NCBI GenBank assembly: GCA_963704165.1
Contig: CAVPHD010000006.1
Location: 1 to 64,000, forward strand
Origin: an uncultured delta proteobacterium
GTDB lineage: Bacteria; Myxococcota_A; UBA9160; SZUA-336
DNA: 64,000 bases
Direction: 5' to 3'
The notes under the pieces were generated by a model that worked only from the letters and a program-made list of their open reading frames with translations, ran no database searches and was not told the DNA's origin. Positions 16,928 to 34,024 of this stretch are shown here, piece after piece; within the stretch, counting starts at the first letter, position 1; every line of letters begins with the position of its first letter. The position numbers and the translations under genes are program-made.

Positions 16928-17734
16928 TCAGCGAGTCCAAGAGAGCGACACGCGCTCGTCGGCGCCGATCCGCACGTGGGGCGCGGGCATGAGCCGCAGG
17001 CCGCGGCCGTCGCAGCTTCGCCCGCTCGCGAGATCGAAACGCCACCGGTGCCAGGGACACTCGAGTGTGTCGGACTCGGGCGTCGCGTCCTCGAGCGGGC
17101 CGAGCCGATGCGGGCAGAGCGTCGAGTGAGCGACGAGCGTGCCGTCGCCGAGCGCGATCACGCGGAACGGGCGGCCGTCGTATTCGACCCGAAGCGGCAG
17201 CCGCGCGCGCACGTCGGCATGCTCGCCGAGGTCGAGCGGTAACCGCCCGCGCTCGGGGAGCGAGCCGAGCCCTGCGAGCATGCTCTCGCGCCGGATCATC
17301 ATCGCCTCGTCCTCGTCCCAGAGCCTCGCGTACAGCGCAGCGTAGCCGCGGCCGAGCGCCTCGACGCTCGCGGACGGAACGCCGGGCAGCAGGAACTCGA
17401 CCCGGATCTCGGTCGCGTCTTCCCGCCCGGGTTCGAGCCGGGTCCGGATCTCGGAGCCGGCGCCCGGACCGGCGACGGTCGCGGTCACGTAGCGCAGATT
17501 CGGCCGGTCGAGGCGGACCTCGACCTCGATTTCGCCGGATTCGTCGGCACCGCGCCCGCGCAGGCGCGCGCGCCAGCCGTCGGCGCTGGACTCGAGGCAG
17601 CGGATCGCGTCGAACGAGCCGCGGTGCAGACCCGGCAAGTGCTCCCAGTCGAGCACGTTCTCCCAGATGCGCTCGAGCGAAGCGCGGATCGTGCGCTCGT
17701 AGACGCCGACGCGGACGAGATCGGTCGCGCTCAC
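16928..17734 (-). CDS. SRPBCC-Rieske [2Fe-2S] protein with inverted domain order
   Basis: N-terminal [14 protein letters not shown] and LWDED; C-terminal CPHRLG...CPWH; leaderless GTG start. Confidence 0.8.
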
Positions 17735-19426: not shown

Positions 19427-19547
19427 GTCCCATCGCCGAGTGACTGCAAGCTGACTTGCTGATCGCGACGCTCATTCTTCGCTGACCGATCTTCGGAATC
19501 GAGTATGCTCCGCGGACTGCGCCGTAGCTGAGCGCTCCGTGGGTGCG

Positions 19548-19652
19548 ATGAAGCGGTTCGACGTGGACGAGCTCTCGAAGTCGATCGAGAGCACCTACGC
19601 CACCGCGACGCGGGTCGCGGGGCGGGCGAGTCGCCTGGAGCGCGCCTCGTGA
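19548..19652 (+). pseudogene. 34-aa ORF: internally deleted remnant or leader of the downstream LuxR-type paralogs
   Basis: MKRFDVDELSKSIESTYATATRVAGRASRLERAS*; the last 40 nt match 20792-20831 at 37/40; same GTGA overlap with the next gene; TATGCT -10 at 19504. Confidence 0.6.
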
Positions 19653-20830
19653 TCGCGTCGAATTCCAGCCGTTCGCAAGCGCAGCTGAACTCGCTGATCG
19701 GCGACATCTACGACGCCTCTCTCGACACGTCGAAGTGGCCAGCGCTCTTGCCGAAGCTGCTGGACGCCGCGGGCGCGCACCGCGGCGGACTCGGCATCGC
19801 CATGCCTGGCGACACGGCATCCGACCTCACGCTCACGCACGAGCTCGATCCCGACCTGATGGGGCGATGGCAACGTGAGTTCTCTGGATTCGACCCCGTC
19901 TACGAGCGACAGGGAATGCCGCCGGTGGGCTCCGTGTTCCGCGCGTGGGACGTCGTCCCTCCCGATGAGTTCAGACGGCTCGCGGTCTACCGCGAGATCT
20001 TCGGCCCGGGTGGCGTCGACGACCACCTCGTGACCATCCTGACCCGGGAGGGCGATCGCAGAGCGTTCTTCTCGGCCTACCGGAGTGAGTCCGAGGGACC
20101 GTTCTCGGAAGAAGATGTGCAGGCGTACACGATCCTCTCGCCGCACCTCACGAAGGCAGCCCGAATCCATGAGAAGCTCTCCGCGGTCTCCAACGCCAAT
20201 ACCGCCCGGGAAATCGCATTCGAGATCCTGCCGTTCGGCGTGCTGGTGCTCGATCGGGACGGATTCGTCGTCTCGCTCAATCGAGAGGCGGAGCGAATCA
20301 TCGCGGCGGGCGACGCGCTTCGGGTCCGCTCCGCCCGATTGACCTTGGTTCATCCACACGCGGACTCCGAGCTGCAGCGGGCGGTGGGACGGTCACGCGT
20401 GCCGCTGGCGGCCGAGACCGCGCCTCGAGCCAGCGTCCTCGCAGCACCGCGTGCGGGTCTCAGGAAGCCCTACCAGCTCTTGATCACGCCGGTTCCGCGG
20501 CCCTCAGCCGAGACGATCTTCGGCACGATACGCCGGGTTGCCGCGAGCCTGATCGTCGTCAGCGACCCCGAAGTCAGCGCTCGGCCAGCGGCGGAAACGC
20601 TCCTGCAGCTCTTCGCCCTCACGCCGGCGCTGTCGCGGCTTGCCGCAGCGATCGCGGCCGGCAAGACCCTCCGCGAGTACGCCGACGAGGCGCGCGTGAC
20701 CGAGGGCACGGCGCGCCAGCAGCTGAAGGAGCTCTTCGTGCGAACGGGAACGTCGCGACAGGCGGAGCTCGTGCGGGTGATCCTCTCGAGTGTCGCGGGG
20801 CTGGCGAGTCGGCTGGAACGCGCCTCGTGA
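19649..20830 (+). CDS. Sensor (GAF/PAS-like)-LuxR HTH transcriptional regulator, copy 1
   Basis: LIGDIYDASLD..W N-terminus; PFGVLVLD..NREAE PAS; LTPA..GKTLREYA..TARQQLKELF.RTGTSRQAEL. Confidence 0.85.
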   Translation: MIASNSSRSQAQLNSLIGDIYDASLDTSKWPALLPKLLDAAGAHRGGLGIAMPGDTASDLTLTHELDPDLMGRWQREFSGFDPVYERQGMPPVGSVFRAWDVVPPDEFRRLAVYREIFGPGGVDDHLVTILTREGDRRAFFSAYRSESEGPFSEEDVQAYTILSPHLTKAARIHEKLSAVSNANTAREIAFEILPFGVLVLDRDGFVVSLNREAERIIAAGDALRVRSARLTLVHPHADSELQRAVGRSRVPLAAETAPRASVLAAPRAGLRKPYQLLITPVPRPSAETIFGTIRRVAASLIVVSDPEVSARPAAETLLQLFALTPALSRLAAAIAAGKTLREYADEARVTEGTARQQLKELFVRTGTSRQAELVRVILSSVAGLASRLERAS

Positions 20831-21990
20831 TGTCTTCGAACCCCGGTCGTTCCCACGAGCGACTGGTCACGCTGATCACCGACATCTACGACGCCGCGCT
20901 CGACGCTTCGCGGTGGCGGGCCCTCCTTCCGGAGCTCGTTCAGTTCGTCGGAGCGACGCGCTGCGGATTCGGCATCGCGGCGCCGGACGACACGACCACC
21001 GACCTGACCCTCACGCACGAGCTCGACCCCGAGCTGCTCGAGAGATGGCAGCGCGACTTCGCGGGATTCGACCCGGTCTACGAGCGGGTCGGCGCGCTGC
21101 CCGAAGGCATGATCTTCCGCGCCTGGGACGCGATTTCCGCGCAGGAGCTCCGGCGGCTCGAGATGTACGCAGACTGCATCTCCCCGCTCGGCATCGACGA
21201 CCAGCTCGTCACGATCCTGACGAGCTCGGGCGATCGCCGGGCGTTCTTCTCCGCCTATCGCAGCCAGTCCGAGGGGCCGTTCTCGGCGGAGGACGTGCGC
21301 GCCTACCACGCCATCGGATCGCACCTGGTGCGGGCGGCCCGGATCCAGGAGAAGCTCCACTCGCTTTCCTTCGCCGAGGTTTTCCGCGACGTCGCGTTCG
21401 AGGTGCTCCCGTTCGGCGTCCTGATTCTCGACCCGGCGGGCGCCGTGGTCTCGGTCAATCGGGAAGCGGAGCGAATTCTCGCGGTCGGCGACGCGCTTCG
21501 GATCTGCGCGCGTCGCCTGACGTTGTACTCCCCGGAGGCCGAGGCCAAGCTGCACCGGGCGATCGGCCGGGCACGCGCGCCCGTTGCGCCTCCGGGCCTG
21601 TCGCAGGCGAGCGTTCTCGCGGCGCCGCGTCGCAACGCGAAGAAGCCCTACCAGCTTCTGGTCGCCCCGATTCCGCCGCATGCCGCGGAGGCGGTGTTCA
21701 GCTTCGAGAGCAGGAGTCCGGCGGCCCTCGTCGTCGTCAGCGACCCGGAGGCGAGTGTGGCTCCGGCTGCGGAAACGCTCCGGCGCCTCTTCTCCTTGAC
21801 GCCCGCGCTCTCGCGGCTCGCCGCAGCGCTCGCCTCGGGAAAGACCCTCCGCGAGTACGCCGGCGAGTCCGGCGTGACGGAGGGCACCGCACGCCAGCAG
21901 CTGAAGGAGCTGTTCATGCGGACCGGCACGTCGCGCCAGGCGGATCTCATGCGGGTCCTGCTCAGCGGAGTGGGGCAGCTGCGGATCTGA
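20827..21990 (+). CDS. Sensor (GAF/PAS-like)-LuxR HTH transcriptional regulator, copy 2
   Basis: Colinear paralog of copy 1 with many identical blocks (DLTLTHELDP, GDRRAFFSAYRS, GKTLREYA). Confidence 0.85.
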   Translation: MMSSNPGRSHERLVTLITDIYDAALDASRWRALLPELVQFVGATRCGFGIAAPDDTTTDLTLTHELDPELLERWQRDFAGFDPVYERVGALPEGMIFRAWDAISAQELRRLEMYADCISPLGIDDQLVTILTSSGDRRAFFSAYRSQSEGPFSAEDVRAYHAIGSHLVRAARIQEKLHSLSFAEVFRDVAFEVLPFGVLILDPAGAVVSVNREAERILAVGDALRICARRLTLYSPEAEAKLHRAIGRARAPVAPPGLSQASVLAAPRRNAKKPYQLLVAPIPPHAAEAVFSFESRSPAALVVVSDPEASVAPAAETLRRLFSLTPALSRLAAALASGKTLREYAGESGVTEGTARQQLKELFMRTGTSRQADLMRVLLSGVGQLRI

Positions 21991-22020
21991 TTCCGCTCCG
22001 CGGCAGCGCGGCGCGGGGAG

Positions 22021-22974
22021 TCACGCGCACTCCCAAGTCACGACCCCGATGCAGCCGGTCTCGACGTAGGTTGAGCGGGCGATCCGGTCGGCGGGAATCT
22101 CGGAGCCCAGCGCCTCGATCTCTTCGCGTCTGCGATAGATCAGGGACCAGTCCTGGAACGCCTCCATCGCGGCGATGTTCGGCGTCGAAGGCAGGAAGTT
22201 CGCGACCAGCAGGCGGCCAGCCGGCTCGAGCGCGGCGAAGAGCCGGGCGACGACTCCGCGCGCGACTCGATCCTGAAGGTAGTCGAGCAGACAGAGCGCG
22301 TAGATGAAGTCGAATCGCTCGGCCGCCCCGACGCTTCCGACGAGGACGCCGAGCGTCTGTCGGCGGAGCTCGAGTCCGGCGAACGCCCGATAGCGCGCGA
22401 TGTGACTCAGGCTCTCCTCGTCCTGATCGTGCGCGACGAAACGCCGGAACCTGCCCTGGGCGGTCGCGCTCCCGGGAGACACCTCCCGCAAGTGACCGCA
22501 CGCGACGGAGAGCACGCTGGCGCCGGGCTGACGCGAGGCGAGCTGATCGAGTTGCGCCTCTGCGAAGTCGCGGCGCGCACGGACGGCGGCGGCCGCCGGT
22601 GACTCCACCCAGAAATCGCAGATCGCGCGGCCGAGCGGTGTCGCGCGCTCCCAGAGCGAGGCGATCGTCGGCTCTCGATAGAGGAAATCGAGGAGCAACG
22701 CGTCGCCGGCGTAGCCGCGCGGCTTCGCGCTGGCACGCGCCGAGAACGGGCACTGCATCGCGTGACCGTAGAGCGGGTGCAGGTGCAGCATGGGCAGGAG
22801 CTCGCGCCGCCAGACCTCGACGCCAACGCTGCGGCGGATGGCGTCCAACCCGTGAAGCAGGACATCGAACTCCGCGTCGTCGACGACCTTGCGCGCCGCG
22901 GAGTCGAGCCACTGGGGAAACCGTCCGACGGCCGCCGACCCGAACTCGTCCTCTGACCGCGCCGGCACCGACAT
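22021..22974 (-). CDS. Class I SAM methyltransferase, PhcB-like family
   Basis: KPRGYAGD.L.DFLY, VLSVACGHLRE, DQDEESL, FDFIY..L.DYL, GRLLVANF, ME.F.DW.LIYR. Confidence 0.75.
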   Translation of the reverse strand: MSVPARSEDEFGSAAVGRFPQWLDSAARKVVDDAEFDVLLHGLDAIRRSVGVEVWRRELLPMLHLHPLYGHAMQCPFSARASAKPRGYAGDALLLDFLYREPTIASLWERATPLGRAICDFWVESPAAAAVRARRDFAEAQLDQLASRQPGASVLSVACGHLREVSPGSATAQGRFRRFVAHDQDEESLSHIARYRAFAGLELRRQTLGVLVGSVGAAERFDFIYALCLLDYLQDRVARGVVARLFAALEPAGRLLVANFLPSTPNIAAMEAFQDWSLIYRRREEIEALGSEIPADRIARSTYVETGCIGVVTWECA

Positions 22975-23055
22975 CGATTCAGCCCGGACCCACGAGATCT
23001 TTCTTCACCGCCGCCGCCCCCCGGACAAGGACTCTTGCTCAGAGCAAGTGACCAA

Positions 23056-23077
23056 ACATCTCCCGAATGGGGGATGT
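23056..23077. promoter_or_regulatory. 22-bp palindrome, candidate LuxR/NarL-type operator
   Basis: ACATCTCCC-GAAT-GGGGGATGT (8/9 arms); a second perfect palindrome CTTGCTC-A-GAGCAAG lies at 23034-23048. Confidence 0.5.
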
Positions 23078-23109
23078 GTGGTGGAGGCCCGGCCGAGTAG
23101 ATTCGGGGG

Positions 23110-23205
23110 CGCTAGTGGCGCTGTCTTTTGCACCTGAGACCGCTCCGTGCGGTCGTATCCCGGGGACGGGGTTGTTCCTTCCCACTCGTCTCCGGGGTAC
23201 ACCGC
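23110..23205 (+). ncRNA. Putative structured small RNA
   Basis: Hairpin 23138-23154 abuts a 16-bp stem 23155-23200 whose three non-Watson-Crick pairs are all G-U on +; upstream TAGATT -10 at 23098. Confidence 0.35.
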
Positions 23206-23251
23206 GTTTCCGGCGAGACAAATGCGGCGACCGCCCTATGCTCCCGGCCCG

Positions 23252-28949: not shown

Positions 28950-29685
28950 ATGGCTGCTGCCGCGTTCGCGTATGGCGTCCTCAGCTACCTGATCTTCTTC
29001 GCGAGCTTCCTCTACTCGATCGGCTTCGTCGGCAACCTCGGGGTCCCGAAGGCGATCGACACCGGGCCGGCGGGGCCGGCGCCGGAGGCGCTTCTCGTCG
29101 ACGTGCTTCTGCTCGGCGTGTTCGCCGTTCAGCACAGCGTCATGGCGCGCCGCGGATTCAAACGCTGGTGGACGCGGTTCGTGCCGGAGTCGGCCGAGCG
29201 CAGCACCTACGTCCTGCTCTCGGGCCTGCTTGCTGTTCCTGCTGTTCTGGAAGTGGCAGCCGATCCTCGGCGTGGTCTGGCAGGTCGAGAACGCCCTCGG
29301 CGTCACCGCGCTCGGGGTCCTGTTCTGGCTCGGCTGGGCGCTGGTCCTCTACTCCACGTTCGCGATCGACCACTTCGATCTCTTCGGCCTGCGCCAGGTC
29401 TGGTTTCGGCTCCGCGGCGCCGAGTACGTGCCGGTCGCCTTCGAGCAGCCGTGGATCTACACGGTCGTGCGGCATCCGCTGCTGCTGGGCTTCTTGATCG
29501 CCTTCTGGTCGACACCGACGATGACGCAGGGGCACCTGCTCTTCAGCGCGACCGTCACGGCCTACACGTTCCTCGGAATCCTCCTGGAGGAACGCGACCT
29601 CGTGGACGTCCACGGCGAGGCCTACGTGCAGTATCGTAAGGAGGTGCGCATGCTCCTGCCGCTTCGGCGGCGGAAGCGAGGATGA
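28950..29685 (+). CDS. mddA: Methanethiol S-methyltransferase (apparent frameshift near 29230)
   Basis: [64 protein letters not shown]. Confidence 0.8.
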
Positions 29686-29696
29686 GGGGAGAACGC

Positions 29697-31159
29697 ATGA
29701 CGACGATACCCAAGCGCGGCCTCGAGACCGAGGCTTTGTTCCGCCGCCTCGAGGACTTTCGAAAGCACGACGTGAACTGGCGCGACGGCCGGGTCTGGGC
29801 GTACGTGTACGACCCCGGAGCCGAGGCCGAGGCCGTGATCAAGCGCGCGTACACGATGTACCTGACCGAGAACGCGCTCGACCCGACGGCGTTTCCGAGC
29901 GGGATGCACCTCGAGAACGAACTGGTCTCAATGGCCGCGACGCACCTGCGCGGCGACGCGAACGTGGTGGGCAACTTCACGAGCGGCGGCACGGAATCGA
30001 TCATCTGTGCGGTGAAGGCGGCGCGCGACTTCGCGCGCGAGCAGCGCCCGAAGGCGCTCCGGCCGCACGTTCTCTTGCCGACGACCGCGCACGCTGCGTT
30101 CCACAAGGCCTGTCACTACCTCGACATCGACACCCGCCTCGTTCCCGTCGATCCGAAGAGCTTCCGCGCCGATCCGCGCGCGGATGCGCGACGCCGTCGA
30201 CGAGAGCACGATCCTGATGGTCGGTTCCGCGGTCTCCGTACGCGCACGGCGTGGTCGACCCGATTCGCGAGCTCGGCGAGATCGCGATCGAGAAGGACCT
30301 GCTCTTCCACGTCGACGGCTGCATGGGCGGGTTCCTGCTGCCCTACTTCCGCCGGCTCGGCGCGAACGTGCCGGACTTCGAGTTCAACGTGCCGGGCGTG
30401 ACGAGCCTCTCGATGGATTTCCACAAGTACGCGTTCGCCGCGAAGGGCGCGTCGGTGATCCTCTACCGCAGCGCCGATCTGCGGAAGTACCAGATGTACG
30501 CGTGCGCGAACTGGACGGGCTACACCGTGATCAACCCGACCGTGCAGAGCACGAAGTCGATCGGCCCGCTCGCCGCGGCCTGGGCCGTGCTCCATCACTT
30601 CGGCGACGAGGGCTACCTCGAGATCGCGCGCCAGGTGCTCGACGCGACCCGACGCATCGCGGACGCGATCGAAGCGATGCCCGAGCTGCGCCTGCTCGGA
30701 CGGCCCGACATGAACCTGGTCGCATTCGCTTCGGACACGGTGAACGTCTTCCACGTGATCGACGAGATGAAGCTGCGCGGTTGGTACATCCAGCCGCAGC
30801 TCGGCTACGCGAGCTCGCGCGAGAACATCCACCTGTCGATCATGCCGTCGAATGTACGCTGGGTCGACGCGATGCTCGCCGACCTGCGGGAGTGCGTCGC
30901 GAAGGCCGCCACGCTTCCGAGCGGAGAGATCGCGGCCAAGATCCAGGCGGCGTTCGGGAACGTGGACCCGGACTCGATCGGCGACGAGACGATCCGGGGA
31001 TTGCTCGCGATGACCGGCGCCGCGGGGAACGCCCTGCCCGATCGCATGGCGGAAGTGAACGAGGTGCTGAACGCCCTGCCCGTTCCGATCCGCGAGAAGC
31101 TCCTCGTCGGCTACCTCAACACGCTCTATCGGCAGCCCGAGGACTCCGGCGGCGGCTGA
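29697..31159 (+). CDS. PLP-dependent group II decarboxylase / sphinganine-1-phosphate lyase-like (frameshifts near 30180 and 30235)
   Basis: NALDPTAFPS, TSGGTESI, AHAAFHKA, HVDGCMGG, SMDFHKY. Confidence 0.85.
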
Positions 31160-31174
31160 GCCGCACCTGGGCCG

Positions 31175-33891
31175 TCAGGCCGACTCTCCGCGCGCCTTGT
31201 CCAGGTGGCGGGCGATCGTCGCGAGCAGAGTCGCACGGTCGATCGGCTTGGTCGCGTAGTCGTCGCAACCGGCTTCCACGCACTTCTCGCGCTCGCCGGT
31301 CATCGCGTGCGCGGTGAGCGCGACGATCGGGCCGCGGTAGCCATCGGCGCGCAGGCAGCGATGTCGCCTCGTAGCCGTCCATCTCCGGCATCTGCATGTC
31401 CATGAGCACCACGTCGTAAGGCTCGTTCGCCAGCAACGAGGCGAGCGCCATGCGGTGCGCCTCGACGCCGTTCTCGGCGACGTCGACGCTGAGCCCCGCA
31501 CGGACGAGCAGGTGGCGCACCAGCTTGCGTGAATCGGGGGTGTCCTCGGCCAGCAGAACCCGACCGCGCAGGTTCGTCGGAACCGCCACGGGCGTTGCGG
31601 CGACCGCCTGCACCACGGGCTGCTCCAGGTCGGTCATCCACTCGACTCCGTCGAGCGGCCCAGGGTCGAGCGAGACCCGGAAGTGGCTGCCCTCGCCCGG
31701 GATCGAGGCTCACGGAGATGTCGCCGCCGAGGAGCTCCGCCATGCGTCGGGAGATCGCGAGGCCGAGACCCGTCCCCCCGAAACGGCGCGTGGTCGATGC
31801 GTCGGCCTGCGTGAAGGGCTGGAACATGCGACCGATCTGTTCCGCGGTCATGCCGATGCCCGTGTCGACGACGTCGATGACGAGCTTCGCGTCGCTGAGC
31901 CCGACGCGCACGCGCACCGAACCCGATTGCGTGAACTTGATCGCGTTGCCCACCAGGTTGATCAGGATCTGCCGCATTCGCACCGGGTCGGTCCGGATGA
32001 TCGCAGGGAGCGGCAGGACCCACTCGCTCGTCAGCTCGAGGCCCCTCTCGTCGGCTCGGACACGGAGCAGGGAGAGCGTTTCCTCGACGATCTGACGCGG
32101 CGAGCACGCGATGAACTCCACGCGCATGCGGCCGGCCTCGATCTTCGAGAGATCGAGCACGTCGTTGAGGATCGCGAGCAGGTGACGTCCGTTGCGCCGG
32201 ATCGTGTCGACCAGCTCCGCGCGTTCGCCCACTTCGGCGTCGTGTTCCGCGAGCACGTCCGCGAAGCCGAGGATCGCCGTCATCGGCGTGCGCATCTCGT
32301 GGCTCACGTTGGCGAGGAACTCGCTCTTGGCCTGGTTTGCGGCTTCGAGCGAGGCGTTGGTCTCGGCCAGCTCGCGCGTGCGCTCCGTGACCAGCTCTTC
32401 GATCTGGCGCGTGCGCTCGCCGATCACGTGCAGCCAGCCCGTGAGCAGCCCCGTGATCACCCAGCCGACGATCAGCGCCGCGAGCGGAGTCCACGTCCGG
32501 GTCGCTCGGAGAAAAGCCGGCGCGGGAGCCCAGATCGTCGGGAGGTTCCGATCTCCGAAGTGCAGCGTCGTGCGGATGGCGGCGTCCGTCGAGAGCCCGA
32601 GGAGCCGCTTCGCGTCTCGCGGCTCGAGTGGCGTTTCGCGTGTGCTCTCCCAGCCCAGATGCACGACGCGTGCATCGGGCCCCGGCCCGTCGGTCACCAC
32701 GACGTCGAGCCCGACGGGAAGCCAGTCGGCGAAGACCTGGTCGATCAACGGTCCCATCTTCACGATCGCCACCGCAAAGCCGCGGAGCTCGCTGACGGGG
32801 CCGAACGGGTCGCTCCCGCCCTCGTAGATCGGCATCAGCATCAGATGCGTCGGCTCTCCGTCGGCCTCGTTCGGCAGGAGGATCGCGGGCGACGCCGCGA
32901 TGTCGCGCGCGAGCCTCGCCTGCTCGATCGCGCCCGCGATCTCGGGAGACGACGTCAGCTCGTAGTCGAGCAAGCGTTCGTTGCCCGCCCGCGGAGCGAG
33001 CGCGGTGATGGCGAAGTGGTCTTCACCATCGCGCGTCGAGCGCGAGGCGAACGCGAACGCCTGCACCGACCAGGCGTGGATCAGCAACCGGTCGCCGAAG
33101 GCCTCGAACTCCTCCGGCGAAACGTACTCGGAAGCGTCGTGGAGACCCGCGACCGCGTCGAGCGCGTCGCTGACCACGGCGAAGCCGCGTTGGATCGAGA
33201 GCGTTCGTTCGAGCGCGGCGTGGTCCAGGCGACGCGCGGCCGCGTCGACCTCGAGCCGGTTCAGCGCGTCCCAGCCGGCGAAGCTCGCGGTCAGGCCGAT
33301 GATGACCGCGACGCGCACCGTCCAACTCGTCCGCGCGCCGAGGAGCGAGATCGCGATCGGGGTGAACGCGATCGTTCCGATCAGCTCCGACCCGAGCCAC
33401 GCGATCCAGGTCGACGACACCTCCCCGCGCGGCAACAGACCCGCCAGGTACATCACGGCGACGCCGTACGAAGAGCAGAAGAGCGCGACCAGCGGGGGCG
33501 CGACGATCACGACGCGCACCAGCGCGCGCAGATCGCGAATGTCCTGGCTCGACGCAACCCATCGCCCCGCGGCCGCGGCCACGAGGATCGCGAAGCTCGC
33601 GCCCGTCGCGTAGGTGAATGCAGCGAGCACGCGCGCGAGAGGTTCTTGGAAGTTGAGCGGCATCAGGAGCCCGACGGCGACGATCCCGCAGAAGAGCCCC
33701 GGCCAGACGCGCCAGCCCCAGATCAACGCACCCGCCAACGCGATTCCCGAGGCGGGCCAGACCGGCGCGATCCCGTCGGCGCGAACCGGCGTCATCCAGA
33801 CGACTTGCGCGCAGATCATGTACCCGGCCGCGAGGAGCAAATTGGCTCCCCAGGGGAATCTGCGGACGAGACTCGACCACGGCCCGGACAT
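31175..33891 (-). CDS. MASE1-CHASE hybrid histidine kinase with REC (frameshifts near 31710 and 31360)
   Basis: [17 protein letters not shown]1, periplasmic CHASE-like region, [27 protein letters not shown]. Confidence 0.85.
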
Positions 33892-34024
33892 GTTCCTCGT
33901 ATCGGGAAGGACCCGTTTCGGCTTTGGAGTCAGATCACGCGCGAGGCGCGGATCTGTGGCGGACGCTTCCGCGAACGGGCCATGTACGACACCCCTGTCT
34001 CGCGGGTGTCGACACCGCAAACGG

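Follow-up and report, generated by a model that had tools for sequence, protein, structure and literature searches.

A candidate lipid-signal module with a PhcB-related methyltransferase, tandem GAF-PAS-LuxR regulators and a predicted operator in an uncultured deltaproteobacterium

Introduction

In the first 64,000 nucleotides of contig CAVPHD010000006.1 (GenBank assembly GCA_963704165.1), referred to here as the window, an uncultured delta proteobacterium of the GTDB lineage Myxococcota_A; UBA9160; SZUA-336 encodes two tandem regulators with LuxR-type helix-turn-helix (HTH) domains, R1 and R2, whose genes converge on that of an S-adenosylmethionine (SAM)-dependent methyltransferase related to PhcB. 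Methyl-ester quorum signals have been described for Ralstonia and its relatives, where they are read by membrane kinases, and the available extracts of three reports describe PhcB as making methyl 3-hydroxy-fatty esters that are sensed by PhcS-PhcRQ (PMC11298618, PMC6989110, PMC9102662). The question raised by this locus is whether an ester of this type could be read by one-component regulators encoded beside the synthase; if so, a receptor of the one-component LuxR type would bring together two distinct signalling paradigms.

We tentatively favor the answer that the locus encodes a lipid-signal circuit in the form of a closed loop, with an ester synthase, cognate one-component receptors, positive feedback, and a small RNA output, as the sequence comparisons below would suggest. 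PhcB acts on a substrate linked to acyl carrier protein (ACP), and by analogy with it, and with the ACP and desaturase fusions of the short enzyme family to which the methyltransferase belongs, SAM-dependent methylation of an ACP-bound acyl chain is predicted to yield a fatty-acyl methyl ester. The ester would then diffuse and bind the GAF or PAS pocket of R1 or R2, which is the weakest step of the scheme. The regulators would bind a palindrome at 23057–23076 and from it activate the methyltransferase gene in one direction and a hairpin RNA in the opposite one; activation from such a lux-box-like site would create the kind of positive feedback known from LuxI/LuxR. This site would be common to R1 and R2, with HTH domains that are 79% identical, and the two would differ in ligand preference (the sensor domains being about 60% identical), acting as homo- or heterodimers.

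A predicted operator upstream of the methyltransferase gene

The regulators and the methyltransferase gene would be connected by the 20-bp palindrome, and two patterns emerge. First, the palindrome recurs with the regulator family. Each palindrome of the methyltransferase upstream region was searched for near regulator homologues and this one alone recurred, and an unseeded palindromic expectation-maximization (EM) analysis of 116 flanks of regulator homologues, from which the window was excluded, gave the same motif, CnTCnCCCAnnTGGGnGAnG. Sites of at least 15 bits by position weight matrix (PWM) are found at 36 of the 80 regulator loci (71 per Mb, these being partly the training set), compared with eight of the 93 methyltransferase loci (7 per Mb) and none of the 11 fum-slot loci of relatives, and two of five held-out alphaproteobacterial regulator loci also have one. 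The window palindrome is the best PWM site of the genome, at 22.8 bits versus 16.4 for the next, and is still the first when the close clade is left out (21.4 versus 16.6 bits, with the choice of sites still made through the first matrix). Within the same genus, G001 has two boxes on the contig that carries its regulator, and G010, in which no regulator was found, has none. The EM likelihood is no better than generic GC-pattern solutions achieve (179 vs 177), and its comparison with shuffles was dropped as proof of the motif because those solutions scored equally high.

Secondly, the sites are regularly spaced from a -10-like pattern, nAnnnT, that lies outside the matrix. This is found 21 nt after the box in 18 of 72 site-sides and 20 nt after it in six, with 0–5 occurrences at other offsets, and it is present on both sides of the window palindrome (chance 4.4% per side). 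The hexamer on the methyltransferase side, AAGAGT, is a three-of-six hexamer, and the boxes of an alphaproteobacterial genome, G225, have similar hexamers (GATCCT, AAGACT) at the same offset. The box center lies about 42–44 nt before the predicted start, and lux boxes have an activator geometry of similar center-to-start distance. A promoter scan gave no strict sigma-70 matches.

The original prediction had singled out the region 22975–23110, and this does hold a predicted operator of the regulator family. Its proposal of TATGCTCC (at 19504 and 23237) as a shared box did not survive, since this is a -10-like element that is kept before uup in four of seven relatives without the module. Two other palindromes were rejected as family sites, that at 23034–23048 matching none of the 80 regulator loci at 3 mismatches, and that at 19446–19459 showing no enrichment at them. 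At two further loci, near-identical boxes flank the regulator gene (L124, 6534 and 7814; L126, 6776 and 8176), the upstream one being followed by a copy of the downstream promoter, which suggests autoregulation or repeated insertion of a cassette.

A box before a related enzyme in another genome

G225 encodes three regulators and has four boxes, compared with no control matches. One of the boxes, with a -10 at offset 20, precedes an operon of a short methyltransferase gene and then a desaturase gene, and one of the G225 regulators has an identical box at a distance of 1.3 kb. The G225 enzyme and that of the window fall within a 20-member clade with moderate support (FastTree 0.94; Shimodaira–Hasegawa-like approximate likelihood ratio test [SH-aLRT] 81). 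When the search for boxed enzyme genes was widened to G225's order (250 genomes), its family (86) and two phyla (280 genomes each), a single doubtful case was gained. We also note in G225 a two-sided box before a gene for a heme-oxygenase-like iron-redox enzyme, about 1.3 kb from a regulator (L242, 747–1469).

Relationship of the methyltransferase to PhcB

A first homologue search with the methyltransferase gave 615 matches, many of them, including many short-family members, bearing PhcB's product name in the JGI annotation (3-hydroxypalmitic acid methyl ester biosynthesis protein). The PhcB clade itself was reached through a Paraburkholderia plasmid operon that encodes two receivers and a kinase alongside a methyltransferase of 468 aa, together with its 120 homologues and proteins named PhcB from Cupriavidus necator N-1 and R. 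pickettii DTP0602; the R. solanacearum protein is not in this set. The window enzyme is 26% identical over 261 aa (E 4e-16) to the 468-aa enzyme of this phcBSRQ-like operon, so that the link to PhcB drawn by the original prediction stands as far as a homologous SAM methyltransferase domain is concerned. The motif on which it had relied, KPRGYAGD (residues 84–91), proves to be that of a short sister family, in which 104 of 120 proteins have it, whereas all 120 long PhcB-clade proteins have KPLGYAGD. The phylogeny proposed as a check likewise placed the enzyme apart from PhcB, with the 16 PhcB-clade rows of an unrooted tree of 73 selected rows split from the short family (SH-aLRT 99). Because of this separate branch and the motif difference, the methyltransferase is, by sequence, a member of a sister family of PhcB and not PhcB proper.

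The hallmarks of the short family (KPRGYAGD, VACGHLRE, a length of 300–350 aa and the conserved core) are all present, with 51 of 55 family-conserved columns retained. Gly228, which is near-invariant in both families, is Cys in the window enzyme and in its 84%-identical relative P0004; P0124 (71%) is the next closest. A PDB sequence search returned TehB-like matches only, and these are weak. No relative was found in a metagenome scan with the methyltransferase alone, and no fusion of the regulator to a methyltransferase is present among the top profile matches.

Genomic context of the short methyltransferase family

The family is large: counting the long forms, it has about 2,000 representatives at E 1e-30, and its members are commonly found near signalling and lipid genes. 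A signal-transduction gene lies within 600 nt of the methyltransferase in 46 of 86 loci, a set that includes many close relatives, and Pfam scans of 32 selected neighbors of this type identified GGDEF-EAL proteins, histidine kinases, kinase-STAND-TPR hybrids, and winged HTH (wHTH)/BTAD-TPR regulators. The membrane-domain profile of three neighboring kinases matches PhcS (hhalign probability 99.5%), and a PhcS-like kinase is present within the methyltransferase cluster in four genomes of the same class. Other recurring neighbors are FadL (14 loci), desaturases (11), ketosynthases (7) and MMPL proteins (5), identified by scanning one representative per cluster, and single proteins fuse the short methyltransferase to a desaturase and ACP, to ACP (weak), or to a dehydratase. 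From the PhcS-like sensors, FadL and desaturases nearby and the ACP fusions, the product of the short family is likely to be a lipid methyl ester.

Several of these contexts are worth recording in their own right. The fused proteins include P0504 (desaturase and ACP), P0472 (ACP), P0481 (dehydratase and, by eye, a phosphopantetheinyl transferase-like stretch) and P0388 (a tandem double methyltransferase). The sensor partner differs by lineage (L007–L086, L190–L195), being a divergently transcribed GGDEF-EAL protein with six transmembrane segments in Alphaproteobacteria and a PhcS-like kinase in Planctomycetota and same-class genomes; Ser/Thr kinase-STAND-TPR-GAF-histidine kinase hybrids occur in Myxococcota and Planctomycetota, where they are frequently convergent at distances of up to about 25 nt; wHTH/BTAD-TPR regulators are also among the partners. 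Four same-class genomes (G176, G039, G152 and G167; L191–L194) share a cluster of a wHTH-STAND regulator, a fatty-acid desaturase, a short methyltransferase, an MMPL transporter and a PhcS-like hybrid kinase, a candidate unsaturated-lipid signal locus. At L190 (2179–6044; G151) there are two convergent short methyltransferase genes, with a small LuxR-HTH gene upstream of one and a 14.9-bit box about 740 nt before the other. The Paraburkholderia operon (L173, 5416–9791) is on a conjugative plasmid of P. graminis and adjoins a cyclopropane fatty-acid synthase gene.

The regulators R1 and R2

R1 and R2 are the only full-length members of their family in this genome, and are 63% identical over 385 aa without gaps, with a repeat period of 1178 nt. 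By domain the identity is 79% in the HTH, 62% in GAF and 58% in PAS, and the ratio of nonsynonymous to synonymous divergence (dN/dS) is 0.42 at a dS of 0.67. In an AlphaFold model, a GAF-like alpha/beta domain at the N-terminus is followed by a PAS domain and, at the C-terminus, by a helical HTH domain; Pfam PAS matches to R1 and R2 are borderline, and PF00196 is present in many homologues. A hydrophobicity scan finds no membrane-like segment in R1 and one borderline segment in R2. Pfam and NCBIfam searches at E 0.1 gave no Autoind_bind (PF03472) match for the regulators and no LuxI synthase. Tandem regulator copies are present in ten other genomes that were fetched, and such arrangements are frequent across the class. 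Regulator homologues are stop-interrupted or fragmented at L123 (5948–7411; G007), L139 and L163, and decay of these genes seems to be frequent.

The hairpin element and the uup promoter

To the right of the operator is a 21-bp stem (23149–23205) that includes three G-U pairs and is closed by a C/U-rich loop of 14 nt. It folds with a z-score of -3.2 on the + strand (one of 200 shuffles being as good) and -1.9 on the - strand, and the three G-U pairs also favor the + strand. Only one of 1048 tiled 61-nt windows folds as well, and the 130 nt of the + strand that follow the predicted start have a z-score of -4.4. A separate RNA of about 100 nt transcribed from the + strand is plausible, given that uup is served by a conserved near-leaderless -10 of its own; by sequence comparison, that -10 hexamer is part of the host backbone and not of the module. 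Rfam gave no match in the hairpin element and one chance-level match inside the enzyme gene. No hairpin homologue was found in 224 other class genomes, which gave seven weak matches of 23–39 nt; the four inspected resemble chance and were rejected, lying in other contexts without a strong box.

In one other lineage (L132 and L134) the box is likewise followed by a long hairpin, with another loop, that precedes a gene. In L134 (6412–6560) this gene encodes an EipA-like secreted protein, and its leader contains the hairpin, which is of 16 bp and has a loop of CA repeats. Across the genome of the window, TATGCT is followed by ATG 6–9 nt later in 19 of 83 occurrences, which suggests that leaderless transcripts are common in it.

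Evidence against the circuit and alternative interpretations

A number of observations weigh against the proposed circuit. First, the gene pairing is not conserved, so that the co-occurrence expected by the original prediction was not borne out: no full-length regulator is present in the 86 methyltransferase loci (flanks of up to 7 kb), and no methyltransferase of this family was found in the regulator loci, including 48 metagenomic and 35 wider loci, which overlap and in which many contigs are short. The regulator family is present in 3 of 11 same-genus and 97 of 225 class genomes and the methyltransferase family in none and 12 of these, such that most regulators are without this kind of ligand source; the neighbors of the regulator are miscellaneous, and the targets of its boxes vary among loci. 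Secondly, a box lies upstream of only 2 of 105 short-family genes (about 0.4 expected), so that the link between box and enzyme is rare and not a family trait, and the second boxed case, in G1045, has no regulator that could be found and no -10 at the usual offset. Thirdly, two-sided sites are a minority (1 of 36, or 4 of 39 with the G225 sites), the canonical spacing and the better hexamer point to the hairpin rather than to the methyltransferase, and the PWM scan of the genome reveals no wider regulon. Finally, the enzyme lies outside the PhcB clade, is without the N-terminal part of about 150 residues found in PhcB and has the Gly228Cys substitution, and no desaturase, ketosynthase or FadL gene adjoins it at the locus. 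The full claim is possible but rather doubtful, namely that a short PhcB-like enzyme makes a lipid methyl ester, that cytoplasmic GAF-PAS-LuxR proteins read this ester directly, and that a single bidirectional operator allows them to activate the synthase together with a small RNA.

The alternative that survives best, although we consider it somewhat unlikely, is that the regulators bind the box and control both the methyltransferase and the RNA in response to an unrelated input, such as a metabolite or a signal from another organism, with the ester as an output. Of the 97 class genomes that encode the regulator, at least 85 yielded no such enzyme; boxes elsewhere stand before the regulator gene itself or before genes for an iron-redox enzyme and for secreted proteins; and the recurrent receptors of the short family are membrane PhcS-like or STAND/TPR proteins. 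However, no PhcS-like sensor was found in this genome (84% complete) or adjoining the locus, so the usual receptor is missing here; the only strong box of the genome is at the synthase promoter, which is the LuxI/LuxR pattern in the extract available (PMC11298618); and a related enzyme is boxed in the unrelated genome G225.

An unlikely alternative is that the box drives the + strand transcript alone, either a small RNA or a long leader into uup, and that the methyltransferase is an orphan in the same slot. TAGATT at the commonest offset is a better candidate than the three-of-six hexamer facing the enzyme, the fum-uup interval of relatives holds different genes, and the pairing of enzyme and regulator is not repeated; against this, a hexamer does lie on the enzyme side at an observed offset, as in G225, the enzyme gene is located between the regulators and their box, and the box-before-enzyme arrangement is repeated in G225. 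That the palindrome is no site of these regulators but a terminator, a repeat or the site of another factor, beside three unrelated neighbors, is very improbable, since for all that the matrix was trained on related and partly redundant flanks and the EM likelihood is matched by generic solutions, there are the tenfold enrichment, the leave-clade-out and held-out matches, the fixed -10 spacing, the G001 and G010 contrast, and the position of the genome's best site, 1.1 kb away from the two regulators that alone represent the family there.

Organization of the locus

The features of the locus are listed in Table 1. It is carried on a 199-kb contig of a 3.87-Mb genome, and runs from fum, encoding a class I fumarase, through a 34-codon open reading frame (ORF), R1, R2, a 30-nt gap (21991–22020), the convergent methyltransferase gene and a 277-nt intergenic region to uup, the flanking genes being identified by Pfam/NCBIfam-type scans. 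The original prediction of two GAF/PAS-LuxR paralogues ending 30 nt from a convergent methyltransferase with KPRGYAGD is correct in its ORFs, gap and motif, and the palindromes and hairpin that it placed upstream of the methyltransferase are found at 23034–23048, 23057–23076 and 23149–23205. In relatives the fum-uup interval is about 0.5–2 kb and is filled by other genes, and so is a variable slot; the module likely arrived in it as a unit.

Table 1. Coordinates of the features of the locus within the window.
Feature	Coordinates	Strand	Basis
-10-like hexamer TATGCT; the regulator operon's predicted housekeeping promoter	19504..19509	+	sequence, inference
34-codon ORF, likely relic of a third regulator with an internal in-frame deletion	19548..19652	+	3'-end similarity, repeat register
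R1, GAF-PAS-LuxR(HTH) one-component regulator, 393 aa	19649..20830	+	ORF, structure model, homologues
R2, tandem paralogue of R1, 387 aa	20827..21990	+	ORF, alignment
Short-form PhcB-like class I SAM methyltransferase, 317 aa	22021..22974	-	homology, motifs, tree
Weak -10-like hexamer AAGAGT, 20 nt after box; predicted methyltransferase promoter, start near 23024	23031..23036	-	spacing
Second palindrome, CTTGCT-CAG-AGCAAG, over the predicted methyltransferase promoter	23034..23048		single copy in genome
20-bp palindrome, predicted operator of the GAF-PAS-LuxR family	23057..23076		genome-best PWM site
-10-like hexamer TAGATT, 21 nt after box (commonest spacing); predicted start near 23110	23098..23103	+	spacing
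Candidate small RNA or leader, both ends inferred	23110..23213	+	folding
-10-like hexamer of near-leaderless uup promoter, 9 nt before ATG 23252	23237..23242	+	conserved in 4/7 same-genus relatives

The original prediction set the start of the module at 19548, which is that of the 34-codon ORF. Because its last 40 nt are a 92.5% copy of the R1 3' end in the same 1178-nt register, this is probably the remnant of a third regulator copy. Its GC content at third codon positions is 0.94, and its N-terminus gave no significant match to the regulator-family profile (E 0.13–0.24). Its stop overlaps the R1 start (GTGA), as the R1 stop overlaps the R2 start, which may preserve translational coupling to R1. 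No family box is present upstream of the regulator operon, in the 19504 region, among the top 8 PWM sites of the window.

Elsewhere in the window, a Rieske-type gene with its domain order reversed lies upstream of fum (16928–17734). Apparent frameshifts, possibly from sequencing errors, are present at 29682–31317, 31116–34020 and 29158–29685, in genes that by eye are decarboxylase-like, a hybrid kinase and membrane methyltransferase-like; the genes of the module itself, unlike these, are intact.

Comparison with known systems

In the literature searched, consisting mostly of titles and the beginnings of abstracts, there was nothing on short PhcB-like enzymes outside Burkholderiales, on the operator of the regulator or on a PhcB-LuxR pairing. 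The predicted operator, independently of the ligand, opens the regulons of an uncharacterized regulator family that is present in 97 of 225 class genomes and also in Alphaproteobacteria, and with its fixed -10 spacing the 20-bp site is predicted to make these regulons predictable. The short PhcB-like family appears to be an unexplored source of lipid signals. If the proposed circuit is correct, a very widespread family of orphan regulators would gain its first ligand class and its first DNA site, and two phyla would have arrived at the same wiring.

The Phc system of Ralstonia and Cupriavidus shares with the module a homologous SAM methyltransferase domain and the common motifs xPxGYAGD, GLxDY and WxLxYR, and other short-family members are paired with PhcS-like sensors. 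It differs in that the window enzyme is on a separate branch from named PhcB (SH-aLRT 99), is 317 rather than about 463 aa long and has KPRG and ACGHLRE in place of KPLG and GCGPA; there is no PhcS, PhcR or PhcQ adjoining it and no PhcS-like kinase found here, and its predicted receptor is a cytoplasmic one-component regulator.

The available extract describes PluR/PpyS of Photorhabdus as a LuxR-type receptor with a non-LuxI synthase (PMC4235431). The module resembles both this system and LuxI/LuxR in its LuxR-type HTH and its convergent synthase and regulator genes, and would resemble them in a 20-bp palindrome placed about 42–44 nt before a predicted start and in the predicted positive feedback on the synthase gene; the box is present, and the enzyme-side -10 is weak. 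It differs from both in the absence of an Autoind_bind match, the extra PAS domain, and a synthase that is a methyltransferase, and we take the sequence of its palindrome to be unlike the lux box.

Photorhabdus PAS4-LuxR solos, which according to the same extract form clusters of tandem paralogues with unknown signals (PMC4235431), are similar to R1 and R2 in their tandem arrangement. The modelled N-terminal domain matches the ligand-binding domain of Pseudomonas VqsR (5xhx; TM-score by target 0.79, root-mean-square deviation 2.9, 20% identity), and VqmA of Vibrio is also matched in the structural search. VqmA activates a small RNA, VqmR. In contrast to these proteins, R1 and R2 have GAF plus PAS rather than PAS alone, identity is low, and the literature searched gave no link between the PAS4-LuxR solos, VqmA or VqsR and a PhcB-type enzyme. 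As we read it, the module functions in the manner of LuxI/LuxR or PluR/PpyS, with chemistry of the Phc type, and belongs to neither.

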